Assembly (NCBI RefSeq): GCF_004376175.1
Contig: NZ_SNUY01000038.1
Location: forward strand, 1 to 32,000
Reading direction: 5' to 3'
Source of the DNA: Halalkalibacterium halodurans
Lineage (GTDB): Bacteria > Bacillota > Bacilli > Bacillales > Bacillaceae_D
DNA length: 32,000 nt
The notes under the pieces were generated by a model. It was not told the DNA's origin and made no database searches. It saw only the letters and a program-made list of their open reading frames with translations. Shown in pieces: positions 8,150-21,748 of this stretch; position 1 is the stretch's first letter, and every line of letters starts with the position of its first letter. Made by a program: the position numbers and the translations under genes.

Positions 8150-8180
8150 CGAAAAGCCTCCCTGTTACTGCTAGGGAGGC
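8150..8180 (-). terminator. Terminator of the sigma/VOC/GyrI-like operon
   Basis: gcctccct (8156-8163) pairs with agggaggc (8173-8180). The minus strand then reads TTTTCG. It lies 18 nt after the GyrI-like stop. Confidence 0.6.
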
Positions 8181-8197
8181 TAGATTCATCATGACAA

Positions 8198-8677
8198 TCA
8201 ACGAATAGCCACATACACGTCAATTTCGTTCGTCGCTTCGTCAGGCTTGTACCGTTCATCCCACACTTCAAAATCATAGCCAGCTGGTTGGTATGGCTGT
8301 TTTCCCATCCATGTTCCATAGAGTGCATCATACGTTTTGTAAAGTTCAGCTTCCAGCCCTCGGTGGGTCGCCATTACATATTGGTGGCTTGGAACCGTAT
8401 GTACGATCATTTCCGCTGGTACATCTTTCGGTTCTGCCACTTTATAGCCGATCACTTGCGTAAAACGATCCACATTCGGATTAAAGTTTGGCTTCATGTC
8501 ATAAAGCTGAATCAAATAGATTTCTTCCCCTACCCTTTTCTGAACCAATGATTGATTTTCAAGCAATCGGTGTAACGTCTTTTTCCCGAGCTGCTGTTCC
8601 TCAATTTCTTGTAAATTAGCTTTCAATTGATATCCTATAACCGTAAAAGCATCGATTGATTTTAGTTGAGGGTTCAT
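8198..8677 (-). CDS. GyrI-like small-molecule-binding domain protein (AraC effector-binding / SbmC fold)
   Basis: 159 aa. The pattern ...FTVIGYQLKANL...IYLIQLYD...QVIGYKV...VPSHQYVMATHRG...YDFEVWDERY...NEIDVYVAI is typical of GyrI-like duplicated beta-alpha-beta-beta modules. The start overlaps the upstream VOC stop (ATGA). Confidence 0.65.
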   Translation of the reverse strand: MNPQLKSIDAFTVIGYQLKANLQEIEEQQLGKKTLHRLLENQSLVQKRVGEEIYLIQLYDMKPNFNPNVDRFTQVIGYKVAEPKDVPAEMIVHTVPSHQYVMATHRGLEAELYKTYDALYGTWMGKQPYQPAGYDFEVWDERYKPDEATNEIDVYVAIR

Positions 8678-9060
8678 CCTTCTCCCACCTTTACATCACA
8701 TTGAACATTAAATAAATTCCCATCTAGATCGTAAAAATCTAAAAAAGCATTCCCTTCCCCATCTTCATGAATCTCTTCCACTTGAACATCATGCTTCTTT
8801 AAGTGACCGTATAGCTTATAAATGTCATCCGTTTGAAAGCCAATCACCCCATGAGGCTTGTAGTTATAGGAAAAAGTAGCGGTCGTGTCATGGCTTGTTT
8901 CGCGCAAAAAGACCATTTGCCCAGAAGGGAGGTTCATTTGAGCCAAGTCCTCATCTTCACTATGCCAAATGAATTCCATACCTAGCACATCCGTATACCA
9001 ACGAATCGCCCGATCCATCGACTTGACTGGGACGATCCCATAGATGATCTGTTGTAGCAT
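8674..9060 (-). CDS. VOC-family protein (glyoxalase/bleomycin-resistance fold), paralog D
   Basis: 128 aa. IVPVKSMDRAIRWYTDVLGMEF...GFQTDDIYKLYGHLKKHDVQVEEIHEDGEGNAFLDFYDLDGNLFNV. RBS AAGGGGGAAG. Confidence 0.7.
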   Translation of the reverse strand: MLQQIIYGIVPVKSMDRAIRWYTDVLGMEFIWHSEDEDLAQMNLPSGQMVFLRETSHDTTATFSYNYKPHGVIGFQTDDIYKLYGHLKKHDVQVEEIHEDGEGNAFLDFYDLDGNLFNVQCDVKVGEG

Positions 9061-9078: not shown

Positions 9079-9448
9079 TCACTTATCGACGATCACCCCA
9101 AACCGATTGCCATCCACATCGAAAAAATCAAAGCCTTCAATCGGCCCATGCTCATATATGTCAGTGACCTCAACACCTTTGTCCTTTAAGGATTAAATGA
9201 TAAGCTACTAAATCGTCCGTAGTAAAATTGTAGTAGCTGTTTTTGTACGTATCCGTTACCGTAAATTCAAGTGGTTGTTTCTCTTTCACCGTCACTAAAC
9301 TTACATATTGCTTATGCTCCTCAAAATAAAAGTCTGCTCCCATCTCCTCTGGCCAAGTTCCCACATGATTTAACTCGAGCACATCTCGATAAAACGCAAT
9401 CGACTTTTGCAAATGAACGACCGGTACGAACACAGCACCAATTCTCAT
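9079..9448 (-). pseudogene. VOC-family paralog C with a frameshift near 9187-9195
   Basis: The N-terminal part MRIGAVFVPVVHLQKSIAFYRDVLEL...TTDDLVAYHLI is in the frame of ORF 9170..9511 (true start ATG 9448 behind AAAGGAGAGGTG). The C-terminal part LKDKGVEVTDIYEHGPIEGFDFFDVDGNRFGVIVDK (9189..9079) is in another frame. Confidence 0.6.
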
Positions 9449-9467: not shown

Positions 9468-9863
9468 TTATTCCTTCGGCCAGCCTTCCCAAATATAAGA
9501 CCGATGTCCATCTAAATCTTTCACGATAAAGCTATAACCTCCCCCTTCTTTATAAACCATTTCCCCAACGGGTACGCCTTTATCTTTTAGGTCCGTATAA
9601 AAAGCATGAATGTCGTCGACGCGAAACGTTAACACCGCCTTCAGTTCCCCATTCTTATTTCGAAACGACAGATTGGGGACGTCGTCGCAACGAATTAACC
9701 CTAGCCCAATGCTACCATTCACGTTCAACCATGCTTCATCGTCGCCTTCTTGAAATGGAAAAGTAAACGCCAAACCAAGCATCGATTGATACCATTCGAC
9801 TGCTTTTTCAAGATTGGAAACAGGCAATTGGATCACTGGAATGTCTAGTGCTTTTCTTGACAT
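9468..9863 (-). CDS. VOC-family protein, paralog B
   Basis: MSRKALDIPVIQLPVSNLEKAVEWYQSMLGLAF...FRVDDIHAFYTDLKDKGVPVGEMVYKEGGGYSFIVKDLDGHRS. The start is moved to ATG 9863, since the ORF-track start overlaps the upstream gene. Confidence 0.65.
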   Translation of the reverse strand: MSRKALDIPVIQLPVSNLEKAVEWYQSMLGLAFTFPFQEGDDEAWLNVNGSIGLGLIRCDDVPNLSFRNKNGELKAVLTFRVDDIHAFYTDLKDKGVPVGEMVYKEGGGYSFIVKDLDGHRSYIWEGWPKE

Positions 9864-9888: not shown

Positions 9889-10263
9889 TCATGTGACGAC
9901 CCCAAAATGATTTCCATCTAAATCGATTAGATCGAAGCCGCGAACCTTTCCATAATCGTGAATCTCGCCAACATTGGCACCTTTTGAGGAAAGAAGTTGG
10001 TGAGCCTTTCCTACATCATTCGTATGAAAGTTAAAATAGACATTCACCTCATAATCGTTCTGCGGAAACTTAGGTTGTTCGATGTCTTCACATGTCACGA
10101 GACAAAACGTCACCGTCCCATCGCCCACTTTTAACACATTGGCAGCTGGGCTATCATCGTGAATCATTTCAAAGCCTAGCATCTCTTTGTACCAATCCGT
10201 TGCTTTTGCTAAGTGACGCACAGGTATGAAAATGCCGACACCGTAAAGTAAGTCTATGTTCAT
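9889..10263 (-). CDS. VOC-family protein, paralog A
   Basis: 124 aa. GIFIPVRHLAKATDWYKEMLGFEM...FHTNDVGKAHQLLSSKGANVGEIHDYGKVRGFDLIDLDGNHFGVV. RBS AAAAGGAGGGG. Confidence 0.7.
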   Translation of the reverse strand: MNIDLLYGVGIFIPVRHLAKATDWYKEMLGFEMIHDDSPAANVLKVGDGTVTFCLVTCEDIEQPKFPQNDYEVNVYFNFHTNDVGKAHQLLSSKGANVGEIHDYGKVRGFDLIDLDGNHFGVVT

Positions 10264-10338
10264 AAGCCCCTCCTTTTTTCCGTTCTACTCATATAAACGA
10301 AGGGATGAAGCAATACCTTACACCACATGGTAAAAAAA

Positions 10339-11067
10339 TTATGTACAAATCATTAGCACATGACCGTCTGGATCAATCACTTGAAAACAAAGGGTGTAAC
10401 CAATCGAACGCCCTTTTCTTACTTCAATCCCCGCCCGGCTTAGGGCGCAATAGGATTCATAGATAAGTCTCGGGTTTTTTGTACGAAACCCTTTGAGGAA
10501 TTGTTCGAACATCGTGGAATCGATTTTTTCAGCACGAACCGATGGACCGATCTGCGGTTCCATATCTGAATAAGAGCGAACTTGTAAATAACGCTGGAGC
10601 TTTTTCTTCGCACGATGCAACGTCGTATACACGTTCGACTCAGATTCATTCATTAAGGTCGCCGTCTCTTTCGCGGTAAAAGCAAATACGTTAGATAGTA
10701 AAAGAGCAACGAATTGTTTTATTGTTAAATACTCCGCGAGCACTTCTAAAAGCTCTCGACTCTCATATTCTTCGTGAAAGTGTAGCTCCTGCATCACATC
10801 GTCTATTGGTTCAACCTGTAGCTGCCTTTTACGTTTTCTATCAATCCACGTATGTTTAATGATTCGATAGAAGAAGGTTTTCGTCATTTTTCGATCAGGT
10901 TGCTGTTTCATCGCTAGGTAGATTTTTATAAGGCTATCCTGAAATAAGTCCTCAGACTCCCATTTATTATGAGTTAACCGCTTACAATACCATTTCATCT
11001 CATAAAAAAATGGGGAGACTTTTTTCTCAAACTTCGACTCATCAAGAGGCTCCTGTTCATCTCTCAT
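10339..11067 (-). CDS. Sigma-70 family (ECF-like) sigma factor with a roughly 80 aa C-terminal extension resembling a single VOC module
   Basis: Region 2-like: ESEDLFQDSLIKIYLAM...FFYRIIKHTWIDRKRKR. Region 4 HTH-like: FTAKETATLMNESESNVYTTLHRAKKKLQRYL. The tail ...YCALSRAGIEVRKGRSIGYTLCFQVIDPDGHVLMI matches the terminal helix and beta-strands of the neighbouring VOC proteins. The start is placed at ATG 11067 behind GGGTGAGG. Confidence 0.6.
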   Translation of the reverse strand: MRDEQEPLDESKFEKKVSPFFYEMKWYCKRLTHNKWESEDLFQDSLIKIYLAMKQQPDRKMTKTFFYRIIKHTWIDRKRKRQLQVEPIDDVMQELHFHEEYESRELLEVLAEYLTIKQFVALLLSNVFAFTAKETATLMNESESNVYTTLHRAKKKLQRYLQVRSYSDMEPQIGPSVRAEKIDSTMFEQFLKGFRTKNPRLIYESYCALSRAGIEVRKGRSIGYTLCFQVIDPDGHVLMICT

Positions 11068-11104
11068 TTCTGCCTCACCCATTCCATCATTTTTTTAAAG
11101 GCAC

Positions 11105-11299
11105 TTATTCTTTGTTTTTTGATTTTCTAAATTGTATGACACACTCTCTACAAATGCATGATTTCCCTACATGCTCTGGTGGAACTAAAAGAAAGATTCC
11201 ATTCGGAAACACTTCGTCATTGCACCAGCAATCACCATATCCGCAGTTGTTTCCTTTGCCACAAATCGGGCAATGCTTGTTTTGTTCGCTCTTGGGCAT
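11105..11299 (-). CDS. Cysteine-rich CWC-family small protein
   Basis: MPKSEQNKHCPICGKGNNCGYGDCWCNDEVFPNGIFLLVPPEHVGKSCICRECV, giving the pattern CPxCG...C...CWC...CxCxxC. The start is placed at ATG 11299 behind AGCAGGGAAA. The ORF-track ATG 11335 falls inside a TATAAT box. Confidence 0.6.
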   Translation of the reverse strand: MPKSEQNKHCPICGKGNNCGYGDCWCNDEVFPNGIFLLVPPEHVGKSCICRECVIQFRKSKNKE

Positions 11300-11333
11300 G
11301 AGATTTCCCTGCTTTCTGTTCGAATCTTCTCTC

Positions 11334-11362
11334 ATTATAAGAAATAAAGTGGTTGTAATCTA
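11334..11362 (-). promoter_or_regulatory. Candidate SigA promoter for the CWC/sigma operon
   Basis: Minus strand: TATAAT (11339..11334), preceded after a 17-nt spacer by a weak -35, TAGATT. Confidence 0.35.
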
Positions 11363-11383
11363 TATGGAGCTTCTAGTAAATGA

Positions 11384-11414
11384 AAAACCAGGTAAAAGAT
11401 CCACCTGGTTTTTG
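11384..11414. terminator. Bidirectional hairpin terminator
   Basis: aaaaccaggt (11384-11393) pairs with acctggtttt (11403-11412). A-runs and T-runs flank it on both sides. Confidence 0.6.
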
Positions 11415-11622
11415 ATTCAATATAAGAAATCACTAACAACATACCCAATATGAAATAAAAGGACGAAAATGAGCAGTGGTCCAAGGACGGATACGTACAG
11501 TGCCATCTGGCCATACCGAATGTTTTTATCTCTCCCGTACATCTTGCTTATGAGCACAATGGCTAGTGTTATCACGGCAACATAACAATCCCATCTGATG
11601 TAAATATTGTTTTTTCATATAA

Positions 11623-11653: not shown

Positions 11654-13018
11654 CTATAGATAGGTTGCTAGCGATGAAGCAATCGCAAAATAGAGGAGTA
11701 GACCGACTATGTCATTAATCGTTGTAATGAATGGGCCTGAAGCAACGGTAGGATCTATACGTAATTTATGAATAATGATCGGGATGATTGTGCCCGTCAT
11801 TGTTGAGATGACGACCGTGCCAAAAAGCGCTGTTCCAACGATCAGCCCAAGAGCCATGTTGCCAAAGCCATAAAATTGAGCTAGCAACGCGGCAAAGAGT
11901 CCGCACACGATCCCCATAATAAGCCCGGTCAACAGCTCTCGTTTAATCATTCGTCGACACGTTGGATGTTTCAGCTTTTCTAAGGTTAACTGCCTGACGA
12001 CAACCGCTAATGACTGCGTCCCTGTATTCCCTCCCATATCGGTTATGAGTGGGATGAAAATGGCAAGTAACGCAAGCTGGGCAAGTGTGTCTTCAAAGTG
12101 TTGAACGACGCTTGCAGTCGCCATCCCAAAAACCATTAATAGAAGAAGCCAAGGTAAACGTTTCATTGCTGCTTTGATTGGATGAACTTCTAGATTGATC
12201 GAACCCTTTGCCCCTGCCAGTTCCTCAAAATCTCCGGTTACTTCATCCTCCACAACGTCCATGACATCATCTACTGTCACGATCCCGATCATTTGATTGG
12301 TCTCTGTTGTGACGGGGATCGCGACAATGTCATAGTCACGTATCAGTTGTACAACCTCCCGCTGATCTGTATGGGGAAAAACAGAGATCACGTGCTTTTT
12401 CATTAGCTGTCGGACCGTTTCATGTAATGAAGAGGTTAAGACATCTTTTAACGAGAGGACACCCATCAGTTGATTGTTCTCGTTTACAACATAAAGGTAG
12501 TAGATCATTTCGGCATCTTTGCCCTCGGCGCGAAGCGTTTCGAATACATCTGCCACCGTTTTTTCTTGCTGAATGGTCAAATATTCAGTCGTCATCAAGG
12601 AACCAGCTGTCTTTTTCTCATAAGACATTAAACGCTTGATGGCATGGGCCTCCTGTTCATCCATACGATCTAAAAAATAGCCGGTCAAATGATTAGGAAT
12701 CTCCTCAAAAAAGTCGGTCATATCGTCTGGTGCCATTTCTTCGAACATTTTAATCGTGTAAGACTCTTTCAGCTCTGTGACAATCTGTTTTTGTTGGTTC
12801 CGTTCCATCCCTCTAAATATAGGAGCAAACTCTTTCGGCCCAATCCATTCATACACTCGCTTCCGCTTTTGAACGTTCAACTCCGAGAAAATCTCCACTT
12901 GATCAATAGGATGTAATGCAAGAAAATCATCGCGAAATTTTTCTCGTTCTTGTTCTTTTAAATACATGTGTAAGTAAAAGGTATACTCTTCTCTGTTTTT
13001 GAAGTCCAGCATCATCAT
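11654..13018 (-). CDS. mgtE: Magnesium transporter MgtE
   Basis: 454 aa from ATG 13018 behind AAGGAGG. It has an N-domain, tandem CBS domains (...VVNENNQLMGVLSLKDV..., ...TETNQMIGIVTVDDV...) and a C-terminal 5-TM domain with GNTGTQS. The ORF-track start 13069 overlaps mgtC. Confidence 0.92.
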   Translation of the reverse strand: MMMLDFKNREEYTFYLHMYLKEQEREKFRDDFLALHPIDQVEIFSELNVQKRKRVYEWIGPKEFAPIFRGMERNQQKQIVTELKESYTIKMFEEMAPDDMTDFFEEIPNHLTGYFLDRMDEQEAHAIKRLMSYEKKTAGSLMTTEYLTIQQEKTVADVFETLRAEGKDAEMIYYLYVVNENNQLMGVLSLKDVLTSSLHETVRQLMKKHVISVFPHTDQREVVQLIRDYDIVAIPVTTETNQMIGIVTVDDVMDVVEDEVTGDFEELAGAKGSINLEVHPIKAAMKRLPWLLLLMVFGMATASVVQHFEDTLAQLALLAIFIPLITDMGGNTGTQSLAVVVRQLTLEKLKHPTCRRMIKRELLTGLIMGIVCGLFAALLAQFYGFGNMALGLIVGTALFGTVVISTMTGTIIPIIIHKLRIDPTVASGPFITTINDIVGLLLYFAIASSLATYL

Positions 13019-13037
13019 GAGAAATCCTCCTTTCCTT

Positions 13038-13736
13038 TTACAAATGTTCCACATCAACGGTGAGAACATGGTCGATCTTTTTGATGAGGTAATAAATTTC
13101 CGTCGTATATTGTTTTTCTGGAGCCGATAAAATCAGTTCCACTTGCTGATTACCGTTCTCTAAATCTTTTAATTTCAGATGGCGAATGCGGATGTCGCTC
13201 CCTTTTTTAGCCATGCTCGTTTTTCGTTCAATCGATTGGATTAGTTCCGTCATTCTCATATTCGGCTCCATGACCATCTTGACCGCCACATCTCGTTGCC
13301 GAAGAGAAGAAGGCCCCACTTTTTTCACGAGTTGAGGAAAGACATTTATCGCTAGCATTAAAAGGACTACCATATACCCTGCTTCAATGTAGAAGCCTGC
13401 GCCAACAGCAATTCCTAATCCTGACGCTGCCCAAATCATTGCAGCTGTCGTCAGACCGGAAATGACATCATTTCGTTTTCTTAAAATAACTCCCGCCCCT
13501 AAAAAACCGACACCGCTCACAATTTGCGCCGCTAAGCGCATTGGATCCATATTATTAAACATCGGGGTCGCAAACCTGTGAAACGATTCGACCGACACGA
13601 TCGTTACTAGACAGCTGGCAACACAAATGACCATGCTCGTCTTTAATCCTAAAGGTTTGTGCTTTAACTGACGGTCAATACCAATCAATAATCCGAAAAA
13701 TAATGCGATGCTTAATTTCATTAACAGTTCTGTCAT
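13038..13736 (-). CDS. MgtC/SapB-family membrane protein
   Basis: LLMKLSIALFFGLLIGIDRQLKHKPLGLKTSMVICVASCLVTIV...AQIVSGVGFLGAGVILR...GLTTAAMIWAASGLGIAVGAG is the MgtC signature. A soluble C-terminal domain follows. The start is ATG 13736 or GTG 13745. Confidence 0.85.
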   Translation of the reverse strand: MTELLMKLSIALFFGLLIGIDRQLKHKPLGLKTSMVICVASCLVTIVSVESFHRFATPMFNNMDPMRLAAQIVSGVGFLGAGVILRKRNDVISGLTTAAMIWAASGLGIAVGAGFYIEAGYMVVLLMLAINVFPQLVKKVGPSSLRQRDVAVKMVMEPNMRMTELIQSIERKTSMAKKGSDIRIRHLKLKDLENGNQQVELILSAPEKQYTTEIYYLIKKIDHVLTVDVEHL

Positions 13737-13825
13737 TTCGTTCACCTGCTTTCCTCACTTATGGTTAGAAAAATGTTTTATAGCAAAAACCGTTGTTCGT
13801 CACAAAAGCTAAACTTCCTTAAAGT

Positions 13826-13860: not shown

Positions 13861-13898
13861 CCCCAAACACACTCATGTTCTATGAGCGAGATTCCCTT

Positions 13899-14047
13899 CA
13901 TTCGTAGAGCTTTAGCACTGTATGGCATAGGACATTGCCAGCTACATTAAAAATCACCTTATGTCGATGATTTCTGTTGACCCATTGGCGTCTCTGGACG
14001 TTTTTGGGCAGCAGCATATCTCCATACAGGAGCCTCACCTAACGAAG
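13899..14047 (-). promoter_or_regulatory. M-box (ykoK leader) Mg2+ riboswitch aptamer, copy 1, controlling mgtC-mgtE
   Basis: The minus strand reads CTTCGTTAGGTGAGGCTCCTGTATGGAGATATGCTGCTGCCCAAAAACGTCCAGAGACGCCAATGGGTCAACAGAAATCATCGACATAAGGTGATTTTTAATGTAGCTGGCAATGTCCTATGCCATACAGTGCTAAAGCTCTACGAATGAAG. As I recall it, this is nearly colinear with the B. subtilis mgtE M-box. Confidence 0.9.
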
Positions 14048-14060
14048 TGGTTGTACGTAT

Positions 14061-14225: not shown

Positions 14226-14351
14226 TACGTCATGTTTCCATTGTTCAAAAAACGAAAGCCTGATGCCAAGACGATCATAAGAAACGCACACTATAATCGT
14301 AAAGATGCCCCTTTATCGGGCATAGCGATGGCAATGGCCACTGTTGTCCCC

Positions 14352-14494
14352 CATTCGTAGAGCTTTAGCACTGTATGGCATAGGACGTTGCCAGCTACAT
14401 TAAAAATCACCTTATGTCGATGATTTCTGTTGACCCATTGGCGTCTTTGGACGAGCAGCAGCATATCTCCATACAGGAGCCTCACCTAACGAAG
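14352..14494 (-). promoter_or_regulatory. M-box Mg2+ riboswitch aptamer, copy 2
   Basis: Same sequence as copy 1 apart from two substitutions and one short replacement (7 nt in copy 1 against 1 nt here, in the GCTGCTGCC-CAAAAA segment). The P1 3' strand differs but can still pair (GTCTTCG with CGAATGGGGGAC). Confidence 0.85.
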
Positions 14495-14521
14495 ACATTT
14501 ATGAAATTTTTTACAACTCAT

Positions 14522-15915: not shown

Positions 15916-17154
15916 TTACCGAACAAGCTTTTTAAATTTCCGTTTGCCCACTTGTACGATGAGGCCATCCTCTATTTCCACTTGTAACTGGACGTCTTCG
16001 ATTTTTTCACCGTTAAGCTTCACTCCGCCATTTTGCACCATTCGCCGTGCTTCACCTTTTGATGGCAATAAATCGAGGGTCACAAGCAAGTCCACAATCC
16101 AAACAGAGGATTCGCCATCCCACTTCACTTCTGGAATGTCCGTTGGCAAATCTCGCTTTTGGAAGACCGTTTTAAAGTAATTTACGGCTTCTTCAGCTTC
16201 GTTTTCGCCATGATACATTCGAACAAGCGTAGCGCCAAGCTTCATTTTCGCATCGCGTGGATGGACACTTCCATCTTCTAGGCCTTTTGCGATCGCTTTT
16301 ACTTCATCCATTGATAAATCGGTCGCTAACTCATAGTATTTCACCATGAGCTCATCTGGAATCGACATGGCCTTTCCAAAAATCTCATTTGGCGCCTCAT
16401 CAATACCAATGTAATTGTTTAAGGATTTAGACATTTTTCGTTCTCCATCCAATCCTTCGATTAACGGCATCGTGATCGCAACTTGCTTATCGTTTCCATA
16501 AGCTTCTTGAAGCATGCGCCCCATCAGCAGGTTGAACTTTTGATCCGTTCCGCCTATTTCAATATCCGACTCTAACGCTACCGAGTCATACCCTTGCATG
16601 AGCGGGTAGAAAAACTCATGGATGGAAATAGGCTGACCTGACTTGTATCGCTTTTCAAAGTCATCCCGTTCAAGCATCCGAGCGACGGTCATTTGACTCG
16701 CAAGCTTAATGACATCTTCAAAGTTAAGCGCGCTTAACCATTTTGAATTATAATGTAACGTTGCTTTTTCCATATCTAAAATTTTTCCGTACTGCTCCAC
16801 ATACGTCCGAGCATTCGCTTTCACTTGCTCATCGGTTAGCTGCTTTCTCGTCTCAGATTTACCAGATGGATCCCCAATTCGCCCGGTAAAATCCCCGATC
16901 AACATTTGCACCTCATGGCCAAGATCTTGGAATTGTCGCAGCTTATGAAGGACAACCGTATGACCGATATGAACATCAGGGGCTGACGGGTCCATCCCTA
17001 GCTTTACTTTTAACGGCTTACCTGTCCGAACCGACTTTTCAATTTTTTCTCGTAAAGCTTCTTCAGGGACAATTTCCACTACCCCACGCTTTAGAATTTC
17101 AAGCTGTCGCTCCACCTCTTGGGTTTGCTCTGGCGTTAACGCTTTTTCCTCCAC
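15916..17154 (-). CDS. tyrS: Tyrosine--tRNA ligase, bacterial type 2 (TyrZ/Thermus-like) with a C-terminal S4 domain
   Basis: HIGH motif (DVHIGHTV), KMSKS motif, [18 protein letters not shown], and a C-terminal S4-like segment [24 protein letters not shown] start behind AGGAGGAA. Confidence 0.9.
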
Positions 17155-17190: not shown

Positions 17191-17445
17191 TAAAAAAATA
17201 AAAAAACCCCTCCCACATAAGGGACGAGCTTACTCGCGGTACCACCCTTTTTGGAGAAATAGTAGCATTTCTCCCAACTCCAACATGATAACGGCATGCC
17301 CCGTTTCTTCACCAAAATAGCAAAGAAAAAGCTCCAAGCTGTACTTCACGAGTCGCCTTTGTACTGATTTGCACCAACCACCAGCTCTCTTTTTACAGGG
17401 AGACGTTCGCTACTGTCACTCTTCAACGCTCAATATTGATTCCAT
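17191..17445 (-). promoter_or_regulatory. T-box leader (tyrosine specifier UAC) with terminator/antiterminator
   Basis: On the minus strand: an AGAGAG element; a specifier-loop candidate GAAGUACA (UAC is the complement of plus-strand gta 17341-17343, followed by the usual purine); the T-box AAAAAGGGTGGTACCGCG (plus-strand cgcggtaccaccc, 17235-17247); then the hairpin CTCGTCCC/GGGAGGGG and a long T-tract (17206..17191). Confidence 0.85.
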
Positions 17446-20882: not shown

Positions 20883-21748
20883 TCAAAACTTGCCTTGAAT
20901 CCTTTTGCACGACCCTCTATTGATTAAAGTCGCATTTATTTTTTCTACAATACCAAGCTGTTCTTTTCCTTCTATCGATTTAATTAAAAGTGTTGTTGCT
21001 CTCTTTGCTATGTCTACAAATGAAATATCTATCGTTGTCAAAAGAGGGGATAAATATGAGGCAAAAAACGAATTATCAAAACCTACAATCGAAATGTCCT
21101 CTGGAATATTCAATCCTAACTCTGCAATGGCTTTGTAAGCTCCAATAGCCATTGTGTCGTTACTGATAAAATGGCCGTGGGCTTATTTGACCCATTGAGT
21201 ATAGACTTTATCCCTTCGTACCCGCTATCCTCAGTGAAATCTCCTTGAAAAATGTGGTCTTCACTAAGCTTTAATCCATGATAACTTAATGTCTCTTTAA
21301 ATCCATCTAGTCTTTCTTTAGCAGATACTTTATTTAGATTCCCTGTTATAATCCCAATTTTTTTATGTCCGAGTTCAACTAAATGATTGACTGCTTTCGC
21401 ACTACCCTCATAGTTATCTGGATTAATATAAATAGCATTATGTTCTTTACTATATACTTCGCTTGTATCAATCATGGCTATCTTATATCCTTGTTTAATG
21501 AGCTTAAAAATAAACTCATTTTCATCTTCTTGTGTTCCAACAAAAATGGCACCTTCAATCATTTTTTGATTGAAAATACTCTCGACCTTCTTTAAGTCCT
21601 CTTTCGAATAAACAATCGATATGATGACATAATAATCTAATTTGTTGGCTTGATCACTTACTGCATTAATAACGGGAGCAAAAAAGGGGTTGTTGTAGAT
21701 TAATGTATCGTCAGTCGTTTTGAGATGATGTGTGCCATCGTTCTTCAC
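20883..21748 (-). pseudogene. LacI-family regulator remnant: HTH-less, frameshifted, AT-rich
   Basis: A sugar-binding core (...NPFFAPVINAV...IGIITGNLNKVSAKERLDGFKETL...) continues in another frame as FISNDTMAIGAYKAIAELGLNIPEDISIVGFDN...LTTIDI...LINRGS. The frame shifts at a T4 run (plus strand 21168-21171). The roughly 60 aa N-terminal HTH is absent. The region is visibly more AT-rich than its flanks. Confidence 0.7.

Follow-up and report, generated by a model that had tools for sequence, protein, structure and literature searches.

Introduction

The ECF41 group of extracytoplasmic function (ECF) sigma factors, represented by SigJ of M. tuberculosis and Ecf41Bli of B. licheniformis, is characterized by a SnoaL_2/NTF2-like extension fused to the C-terminus. 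In this group the neighboring gene, located upstream or downstream, is the sole target and is reached through the promoter TGTCACA-N16-CGTC; truncation of the extension's distal part raises the activity 20- to 120-fold, while deletion of the whole extension abolishes it (PMC3426412). The sigma factors of the ECF56 group (SigG of M. tuberculosis, SVEN_4562, SigG1 of S. tsukubaensis) are also extension-bearing and control genes of glyoxalase-domain proteins (bioRxiv 10.1101/2020.01.30.927608). For ECF sigma factors of this one-component type with a fused extension few signals are known, the large groups ECF41 and ECF56 included. In the ECF125 group, as far as the searchable text of the classification describes it, an actinobacterial sigma factor with no C-terminal extension is paired with a +1 protein consisting of an N-terminal anti-sigma-like segment and several vicinal oxygen chelate (VOC) domains. 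The present analysis concerns a 32,000-nucleotide stretch of DNA from Halalkalibacterium halodurans (contig NZ_SNUY01000038.1, positions 1 to 32,000), called here the window. [quoted passage not shown]

We consider it rather probable that this protein represents an undescribed family of ECF sigma factors with a mosaic tail and that it acts as a one-component sigma factor driving a downstream operon of four VOC genes (VOC1-VOC4) and a GyrI-like gene. A scan of species-representative genomes with a 10-sequence alignment gave 80 related loci. The 63 non-redundant loci that have a tail-bearing sigma factor, the window included, are called here the T class, a name of our own.

The T class resembles ECF41 in several respects. 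Both have no anti-sigma factor and carry a C-terminal extension directly after region 4 of the sigma factor, and in both the first helix of the extension is retained. Both have a neighboring gene with a group-specific promoter of TGT type at -35 and CGT type at -10, and the nearest NCBIfam models of the T class are those of SnoaL-bearing sigma factors. However, the extension is shorter, about 65-80 residues in the T class against about 100-120 in ECF41, and its first helix alone is NTF2-like, the remainder being apparently derived from a VOC protein. The neighboring gene encodes a VOC protein in place of the carboxymuconolactone decarboxylase, oxidoreductase or epimerase of ECF41, and the promoter, TGTWWGG-N16-CGTTWW, differs from TGTCACA-N16-CGTC in the -35 element. 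Membership of ECF41 proper was rejected on the linker motif, the length of the extension, the neighboring gene, the promoter sequence and the model scores. The SnoaL-type sigma factor models stay below their curated cutoffs, TIGR02960 with 51.5 bits (cutoff 264.75) and PRK08241 with 61.7 bits (cutoff 240), and both match the sigma core only.

The ECF56 group shares with the T class a fused extension and a regulon with glyoxalase/VOC-domain proteins. In contrast to the T class it is actinobacterial and has a full SnoaL_2 domain with no VOC fragment fused to the sigma factor, and SigG1 has a separate anti-sigma factor, RsfG. The likeness to ECF125 is that an ECF sigma factor is paired with a VOC-domain protein at +1, according to the searchable group description. 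Unlike the ECF125 partner, the +1 protein of the window (VOC1) is a bare VOC domain of 124 residues with no anti-sigma-like segment.

The sigma factor and the T class

The protein belongs to the ECF (group 4) sigma-70 family. The longest open reading frame (ORF) in the ORF list, 10339..11082 (-), has 247 codons and starts at 11082. The sequence GGTGAGG-N5-ATG provides a ribosome-binding site and a start codon at ATG 11067, which gives a protein of 242 amino acid residues followed by a stop codon; the database protein P0001 is identical to this form (100% match). Residue numbers refer to the 242-residue protein unless marked otherwise. The Pfam search was numbered on the 247-residue ORF and placed Sigma70_r2 at 30-87 (E 4e-11) and Sigma70_r4_2 at 110-162 (E 2.5e-10). 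These correspond to region 2 (PF04542) at residues 25-82 (10822..10995, (-) strand) and to region 4 (PF08281) at residues 105-157 (10597..10755, (-) strand), the latter with the family-conserved motif VFxFTAKETA. No other sigma domains were found by Pfam, and among NCBIfam models TIGR02937 (sigma70-ECF, 62.7 bits, cutoff 42.9) is the only one above its cutoff. The earlier note on this DNA had read the gene in the same way, as sigma regions 2 and 4 followed by a tail.

The AlphaFold2 model of the full-length protein has a mean predicted local distance difference test score (pLDDT) of 84. At region 2, helices 10-31, 35-55 and 63-83 have pLDDT above 90, and the score falls below 50 at residues 85-90. 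The linker, which reads RKRQLQVEPIDDVMQELHFHEEYESRE, corresponds to unconserved columns of the family alignment. A Foldseek search with the full-length model returned sigma factors only, with ECF sigma factors on top and the SigG1 structure 7qh5 among the matches. The tail of this model contains helices 184-195 and 199-212 and strands 215-222, 225-231 and 237-241. The model of the tail alone (pLDDT 86, predicted template modeling score, pTM, 0.68) retains the same order of elements, helix-helix-strand-strand-strand, its helices spanning tail residues 9-20 and 24-36 and its strands spanning 40-43, 52-56 and 62-66.

The last approximately 85 residues of the 247-residue ORF have no Pfam match. 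No Pfam or NCBIfam family was found for the tail, whether the full protein, the isolated tail of the window or the tails of the family were searched. Twelve relatives from a word-indexed search share the pattern FExFLxGFRxKNPxxIYESY...G.E.....LCF..DPDGNVLMIC[TS]. The conserved residues (F, I, Y, F, D, G) lie in the hydrophobic core and at turns, and the family alignments contain no conserved Cys/His/Glu pattern of ligand type in the tail. A profile of the tails only, searched against a representative library of 1.84 billion proteins, gave 92 matches at E <= 1e-3; 43 of these are full-length sigma factors of 223-268 residues that carry the tail at their C-terminal end, and fragments of such sigma factors account for many of the rest. 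The hosts of the T class are mostly Paenibacillus and Cohnella, together with one clade of Bacillaceae that holds the window and includes Evansella, Salinibacillus, Sutcliffiella, B. caseinilyticus and B. litorisediminis.

The T class is thus a widespread and apparently undescribed family of Bacillales ECF sigma factors, as judged by the published descriptions of the known ECF groups. No VOC-type ECF extension was found in literature searches, in the searchable text of the ECF classification paper and its supplementary group descriptions, or in two reviews, in agreement with the earlier note, to which none was known. Nor do the searchable supplements describe any Firmicutes group that has an extension of VOC type or a neighboring VOC gene; the word glyoxalase occurs in their group-description and summary-table files for ECF56, ECF125 and ECF239 only (bioRxiv 10.1101/2019.12.11.873521).

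Relationship of the tail to VOC proteins

The C-terminal half of the tail (residues 201-242; 10342..10467, (-) strand) consists of a helix and three β-strands and ends with DPDGHVLMICT. It appears homologous to the C-terminal α-β-β-β segment of VOC proteins. Pairwise comparison with the VOC proteins of the window is marginal for VOC1 (BLASTP, 28% identity over 39 residues, E 0.004) and gives no match for VOC4 (E 8.7), so that profiles are needed to judge the resemblance. The alignment of tails against the four local VOC proteins by hhalign has a probability of 93.6% with 10 tails and 95.7% (E 8e-9) with 52 tails, and it spans the last helix and the strands.

The claim of homology rests on a hidden Markov model (HMM) of VOC proteins that was built before any sigma sequence was added. 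This model, made from 119 neighboring VOC ORFs, matches about 50 sigma tails among 3,891 ORFs with E-values of 5e-9 to 2.5e-4, and the matches are confined to profile positions of about 87-126 out of 130. In the reverse direction, the tail profile matches VOC proteins of the 1.84-billion-protein library at E 1.9e-8 to 1e-3. These are P0058 (1.9e-8), P0075, P0078, P0098 and P0102, and all five carry Pfam Glyoxalase. Turns of DPDGN type also draw giant repeat proteins into this search. In the PDB the VOC chains 3ey7, 3hnq and 1npb align at tail-profile positions 33/41-67, with E-values of 2.3e-4 for 3ey7, 4e-3 for STM3117 and 0.011 for FosA. Of 52 isolated tails, seven match PF00903 at E <= 0.01; matches to any other family do not recur. 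Among the top 45 Foldseek matches of the tail-only model, in a list led by VOC chains, about ten are glyoxalase/VOC chains superimposed over about 40 columns at 2.6-3.5 Å.

We conclude from these comparisons that the last approximately 42 residues are probably a VOC-derived α-β-β-β unit, not a complete β-α-β-β-β module. In terms of the VOC superfamily (PF00903), the aligned portion is the last helix and three strands with the DPDGN turn, about one third of the two-module domain. The first strand of the module, the second module and the metal ligands are missing, and the fragment is joined to a sigma factor. The DPDG turn (DPDGHVLMICT) is not followed by a Glu, and no His or Glu is conserved in the family at the tail, which leaves it without the VOC metal ligands. 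The AlphaFold2 models contain no paired β-α-β-β-β modules, only one α-β-β-β unit preceded by a helix.

The claim of the earlier note that the end of the tail is VOC-like is therefore borne out by the reciprocal profile searches and by a consistent though non-significant fold ranking, while the pairwise support is weak. Its term "single VOC-like module" goes too far, as the VOC likeness covers only these 42 residues and the preceding helix is of SnoaL/NTF2 type. The structure prediction that it proposed does give three strands after a helix, in the order helix-helix-strand-strand-strand and not as a full module.

A separate observation concerns P0027, a metagenomic fragment of 307 residues in which one ORF encodes sigma region 4, the tail, a linker of 7 residues and one more VOC-like domain. 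Either the sigma factor gene is naturally fused to its +1 VOC gene by read-through, or a stop codon was lost in assembly. The tail region of P0027 scores 41 bits on PF00903 (cutoff 20.6).

Relationship of the tail to SnoaL-type extensions

The N-terminal half of the tail (residues 176-200; 10468..10542, (-) strand) comprises a short linker and the first helix, FEQFLKGFRTKNP. This part appears homologous to the helix that opens the SnoaL/NTF2-like extension in a sister clade, called here the S class, again a name of our own. It includes 13 retrieved loci (L058, L065, L067-L069, L071-L073, L075, L077-L080), from Bacillus infantis, Peribacillus and Pseudalkalibacillus among others, with sigma factors of 311-356 residues, some of them incomplete in the assemblies. 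The S-class cores are 38-42% identical to the window protein, which equals the identity of distant T-class members. The extension of about 150 residues starts with ...MLEGFRRKDPDMIASLL... and matches Pfam SnoaL_2 weakly (E 1e-4, below the cutoff, profile positions 1-32).

Alignment of the tails with the S-class extensions by hhalign gave a probability of 92.9-94.3% (E 1e-7 to 4e-7), driven by the first helix, and BLASTP of the window tail with the extension of L069 gave E 6e-5. For an HMM of tail residues 1-25, the best six matches outside the T class are at the equivalent position of S-class sigma factors. In the PDB search, de novo designed NTF2 proteins match positions 6-28 of the tail profile. 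The closest curated NCBIfam models for all 52 T-class members are the SnoaL-bearing PRK08241 and TIGR02960. In a neighbor-joining tree of the sigma cores, calculated without bootstrap and without ECF41 or ECF56 reference sequences, the T class (62 sequences) and the S class (12 sequences) form sister monophyletic clades.

The two clades share the first extension helix, an adjacent VOC gene and a similar promoter-like motif. They differ in that the S class, which is ECF41/ECF56-like, keeps an NTF2-like extension of about 150 residues, and in that its partner VOC protein is intact, with an end that corresponds to the sequence forming the end of the T-class tail. A VOC gene lies directly downstream of the sigma factor gene in 7 of 13 S-class loci, sometimes overlapping its stop codon, and within 4 kb in 4 more. 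The S class looks like a separate ECF group that is under-annotated.

The C-terminal mini-domain of about 65 residues thus appears to be a mosaic of a SnoaL-type helix and a VOC end. Since the first helix of the tail is homologous to that of the S-class extension, the T class is, as judged from sequence comparison, a derivative of the SnoaL-extension lineage. The earlier note had mentioned the SnoaL-like extension group as a precedent and had set this tail apart from it; the present comparison places the tail within that lineage.

Origin of the tail

The closest match to the tail end is found in the VOC genes beside the S class, which end with ...KDPDGHIIMICTG. The individual S-partner VOC proteins end with ...FSFFNVKDPDGHIIMICTG or ...VSFFNFKDPDGNVLMICEE, an ending that may be written KDPDG[NH]IIMICTG. 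In the tail as in the S-partner VOC proteins, the stretch KDPDG[NH]-h-h-M-I-C-T stops 0-1 residue short of the C-terminus. An HMM of the C-terminal half of the tail has a median score of 33.8 bits on 7 VOC proteins beside the S class (7 of 7 at or above 25 bits) and of 15.5 bits on 58 VOC proteins beside the T class, those of the window included. BLASTP of the window tail with the partner VOC protein of L069 gives 36% identity over 42 residues (E 1e-7) and reaches to at most 1 residue from both C-termini. The earlier note had stated that the tail mirrors the four adjacent VOC proteins. The resemblance is real by profiles, but it is not special to these neighbors, as the two median scores indicate.

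Because the ends of the S-partner VOC proteins are the closest match, an old fusion with a neighboring VOC gene is suggested. The first helix and the K-N-P loop would come from the first helix of a SnoaL/NTF2-like extension of the kind still carried by the S class. The last approximately 42 residues would come from the C-terminal α-β-β-β part of a VOC protein, the nearest being the subfamily beside the S class. We infer a single ancient event, an in-frame fusion or deletion, by which the beginning of the SnoaL-type extension became attached to the 3' third of the neighboring VOC gene. An extension apparently born from a neighboring gene is an unusual feature among one-component ECF sigma factors regulated by extensions.

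Predicted promoter and probable target

A predicted ECF-type promoter of the VOC operon is located at 10294..10324 (-), between the sigma factor gene and VOC1. The -35 element TGTAAGG (10316-10322) and the -10 element CGTTTA (10294-10299) are separated by a 16-nucleotide spacer, and the motif TGTAAGG-N16-CGTTTA starts 17 nucleotides past the sigma stop codon. The chance expectation for the motif in the window is 0.12 matches and 2 are present, of which the second, at 21134, is probably fortuitous. The motif is found 14-59 nucleotides past the sigma stop codon in Evansella, Sutcliffiella, B. caseinilyticus and B. litorisediminis (L001, L002, L006, L008), while in Salinibacillus (L005) it lies upstream of the sigma-VOC operon. 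In 31 of the 63 T-class loci the sequence TGTWWGR-N15-18-CGTT begins at most 45 nucleotides past the sigma stop codon, mostly at +7 to +22. A related motif precedes the VOC gene in S-class loci. The recurrence of an ECF-type promoter at the sigma stop codon across the family makes the VOC operon the probable target of this sigma factor.

A variant, CCGTATC-N15-19-CGTTA, occurs within 800 nucleotides upstream of the sigma start in 16 of the 63 loci, and in the VOC-sigma operons inspected it is positioned just ahead of the upstream VOC gene. The subclade with the VOC gene upstream (L015, L020-L022, L026-L028, L031, L032, L034-L037, L042) has another -35 element (CCGTATCT-N16-CGTTA[AT]TAG) with an unchanged -10 element. 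The VOC-sigma operons of the variant-motif subclade may accordingly be autoregulated, and region 4 of the sigma factor may co-evolve with the -35 element.

A VOC gene on the same strand adjoins the sigma factor gene in 52 of the 63 T-class loci (36 downstream, 11 upstream, 5 on both sides), and all 10 sampled VOC neighbors pass the Pfam Glyoxalase cutoff. The co-occurrence of this architecture with VOC genes, which the earlier note had proposed to search for, is thus found in most of the family. The two ECF clades and their VOC/GyrI-like operons are left unnamed by current Pfam and NCBIfam models.

Possible function of the tail

By analogy with ECF41 and ECF56, the protein most likely acts as a one-component sigma factor without an anti-sigma factor. 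It would recognize TGTAAGG-N16-CGTTTA after its own stop codon and transcribe the operon of VOC1-VOC4 and the GyrI-like gene, again by analogy. The tail would most likely modulate the sigma activity within the same molecule. In such a scheme the retained proximal helix would be the part required for activity, as in ECF41, and the VOC-derived sheet would stand in for the SnoaL domain's distal part with its inhibitory or sensing role. Intramolecular modulation is preferred with moderate confidence, because the T class keeps the proximal helix that is essential in ECF41 while the distal part is replaced. The T class may be regarded as a natural experiment in which the distal SnoaL part was swapped for a VOC fragment. 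The proteins are compact (about 240 residues), widespread in Paenibacillus, Cohnella and Bacillaceae, and followed by a single clearly predicted target promoter immediately after the stop codon, which would make truncation and reporter tests straightforward in B. subtilis. A further step, in which the VOC-derived sheet still recognizes VOC proteins or their ligands, the sigma factor is titrated or activated by the induced binding proteins or by their toxin, and the sensor was recruited from the regulon, seems rather unlikely. If the VOC piece did sense the same compound or proteins as the regulon, it would clearly exemplify a regulatory domain that arose from a target gene.

Several observations weigh against the main interpretation, that of a mosaic tail on a one-component sigma factor. 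The isolated tail of the window has no Pfam match at all, the tail-only model gives nothing significant in Foldseek (best E 0.21), and the pTM of the full-length model is 0.50. The S-class extension aligns by hhalign and BLASTP also with tail residues of about 27-51, across a gap of 5 residues. Where the two parts of the mosaic meet is therefore ambiguous: as this alignment extends as far as residue 51 or so, the SnoaL-derived part could be larger and the VOC-derived part could be only the last 16-27 residues or so. Given how the tree was built, the direction of change, with the SnoaL-type extension ancestral, rests on parsimony. The WLPEP motif of the ECF41 linker is absent, so the intramolecular contacts described for ECF41 are not simply transferable. 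Finally, the promoter-like motif in the window precedes the VOC operon and not the sigma factor gene.

Alternatively, module pairing could let the tail dock onto an adjacent VOC protein or swap strands with it; that protein would in this case be an anti-sigma factor, a co-activator or a ligand-dependent partner, for example in feedback from the products of the regulon. VOC folds are built by the pairing of modules through their sheets, and in the model the α-β-β-β piece of the tail has no partner module and leaves its sheet edges free. The adjacency in 52 of 63 loci and the joining of sigma region 4, tail and VOC domain in P0027 agree with such pairing, and ECF125 offers a precedent, as the classification text proposes its soluble glyoxalase-domain protein at +1 as the anti-sigma factor (bioRxiv 10.1101/2019.12.11.873521). 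However, a relation of regulator to target explains the adjacency more simply, since a conserved ECF-type promoter lies between the sigma factor and VOC genes and already accounts for it. The local VOC proteins, with 124-131 residues and no N-terminal anti-sigma domain, are complete two-module proteins, so that their pairing needs are already met, and the tail is closer to another VOC subfamily than to them. In ECF41 the neighboring target protein played no role in signaling (PMC3426412), and in the model the tail folds confidently alone. Taken with these points, docking onto a VOC neighbor is an unlikely explanation. The sheets could also pair between two tails, as VOC modules do, and keep the sigma factor in a dimeric state, inactive (or active), pending a signal. 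The conserved residues of the tail, in the hydrophobic core and turns with no ligand-type Cys/His/Glu pattern, would suit such a self-association element. The monomer model, however, is compact and confident, and to our knowledge no ECF sigma factor is regulated by tail-tail dimerization of this kind; we regard it as very improbable.

Another explanation concerns the origin of the tail, the whole of which might be a truncated SnoaL/NTF2-like remnant with a VOC likeness that arose by convergence on the strand-turn-strand motif F-x-F-x-DPDGN. Tail columns 7-59 are paired with the S-class extension by hhalign and residues 1-51 by BLASTP, the giant repeat proteins of the library search indicate that the DPDGN motif alone is promiscuous, and Foldseek found no significant VOC match. 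Against convergence, the VOC match spans 40-50 residues and includes the helix, not the turn alone, and the ending KDPDG[NH]-h-h-M-I-C-T is common to the tail and the S-partner VOC proteins, while S-class extensions do not end with DPDGN or anything similar. A helix of 13 residues that leads directly into a strand, as predicted here, agrees with a VOC half-module and not with the short second helix known from the NTF2 fold, and SnoaL Pfam models match none of 52 tails, compared with 7 of 52 for Glyoxalase. The chance that the tail is wholly of SnoaL origin is accordingly judged small. A local artefact, in which a frameshift, a lost stop codon or a misassembly brought a sigma factor gene and the remains of a VOC gene together in this genome alone, would find some parallel in the frameshift of VOC3 in the same operon. 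It is ruled out by the conservation of the architecture, which recurs with the same length and with conserved tail residues in 63 loci of different species and in 43 library representatives.

Genes adjacent to the sigma factor gene

All genes of the downstream operon are on the (-) strand. The +1 gene, VOC1 (9889..10263), encodes 124 residues with the Glyoxalase domain at residues 12-119 (Pfam Glyoxalase E 1.3e-7, Ble-like_N E 8e-5). It is kept in close relatives, and Glyoxalase genes of 124 codons occupy the +1 position in Evansella clarkii and Sutcliffiella cohnii. VOC2 (9468..9863) encodes about 131 residues from ATG 9863, where start codon and ribosome-binding site were read from the sequence, while the longest ORF starts at 9917 (Glyoxalase E 2.6e-9). 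VOC3 (9079..9448) is frameshifted, comes out truncated when aligned, and matches Glyoxalase in its N-terminal half only. Its frame stops with ...HLILKGQRC* at 9170, and the remainder, DKGVEVTDIYEHGPIEGFDFFDVDGNRFGVIVDK*, runs in another frame to 9079; a one-base insertion or deletion near AAAGGACAAAGG is responsible and reflects either a real pseudogene or a sequencing error. VOC4 (8674..9060) encodes 128 residues (Glyoxalase E 2.5e-14). Four VOC genes are therefore present downstream, as the earlier note had stated, with the qualification that the third is interrupted.

The last gene of the operon (8198..8677) starts in overlap with the VOC4 stop codon and encodes a GyrI-like/Cass2 small-molecule-binding protein of 159 residues (Pfam Cass2 E 8e-18, GyrI-like E 9e-18). 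GyrI-like homologues occur downstream of the sigma factor gene in L001, L005, L023, L024, L035, L041 and L049. A terminator-like hairpin follows at 8151..8180 (-), GCCTCCCT ... AGGGAGGC and then TTTTC; it was read directly from the sequence and is absent from the list of the automatic scan. The local VOC proteins have no usual metal-binding His/Glu positions. This feature, together with the match of VOC1 to a bleomycin-resistance N-terminal model and the GyrI-like partner, suggests that the operon may bind or detoxify a small toxic molecule.

No anti-sigma gene is conserved near the sigma factor gene in the related loci, consistent with the earlier note, to which none was obvious. A gene of the Cys-rich CWC family (PF14375) at 11105-11335 (-) ends 37 nucleotides upstream of the sigma start. 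It was considered as a candidate for a zinc-type anti-sigma factor and was rejected; having no homologue in any of 83 related loci, it lies outside the conserved system.

Other elements of the window

A short ORF at about 11400-11575 (-), hydrophobic when read by eye, probably encodes a membrane peptide of two helices. It is located between the terminator of the MgtE-like transporter gene and a second terminator-like hairpin at about 11375-11410. Two complete tandem M-box (magnesium) riboswitch aptamers are found at 13890-14053 and 14342-14500 (-), with 149 and 124 bits, upstream of a gene for a membrane protein of 235 residues (13038-13745) and of the MgtE-like transporter gene (11654-13069). 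A T-box leader at 17217-17435 (-), scoring 123 bits, precedes an ORF of 412 residues at 15916-17154.

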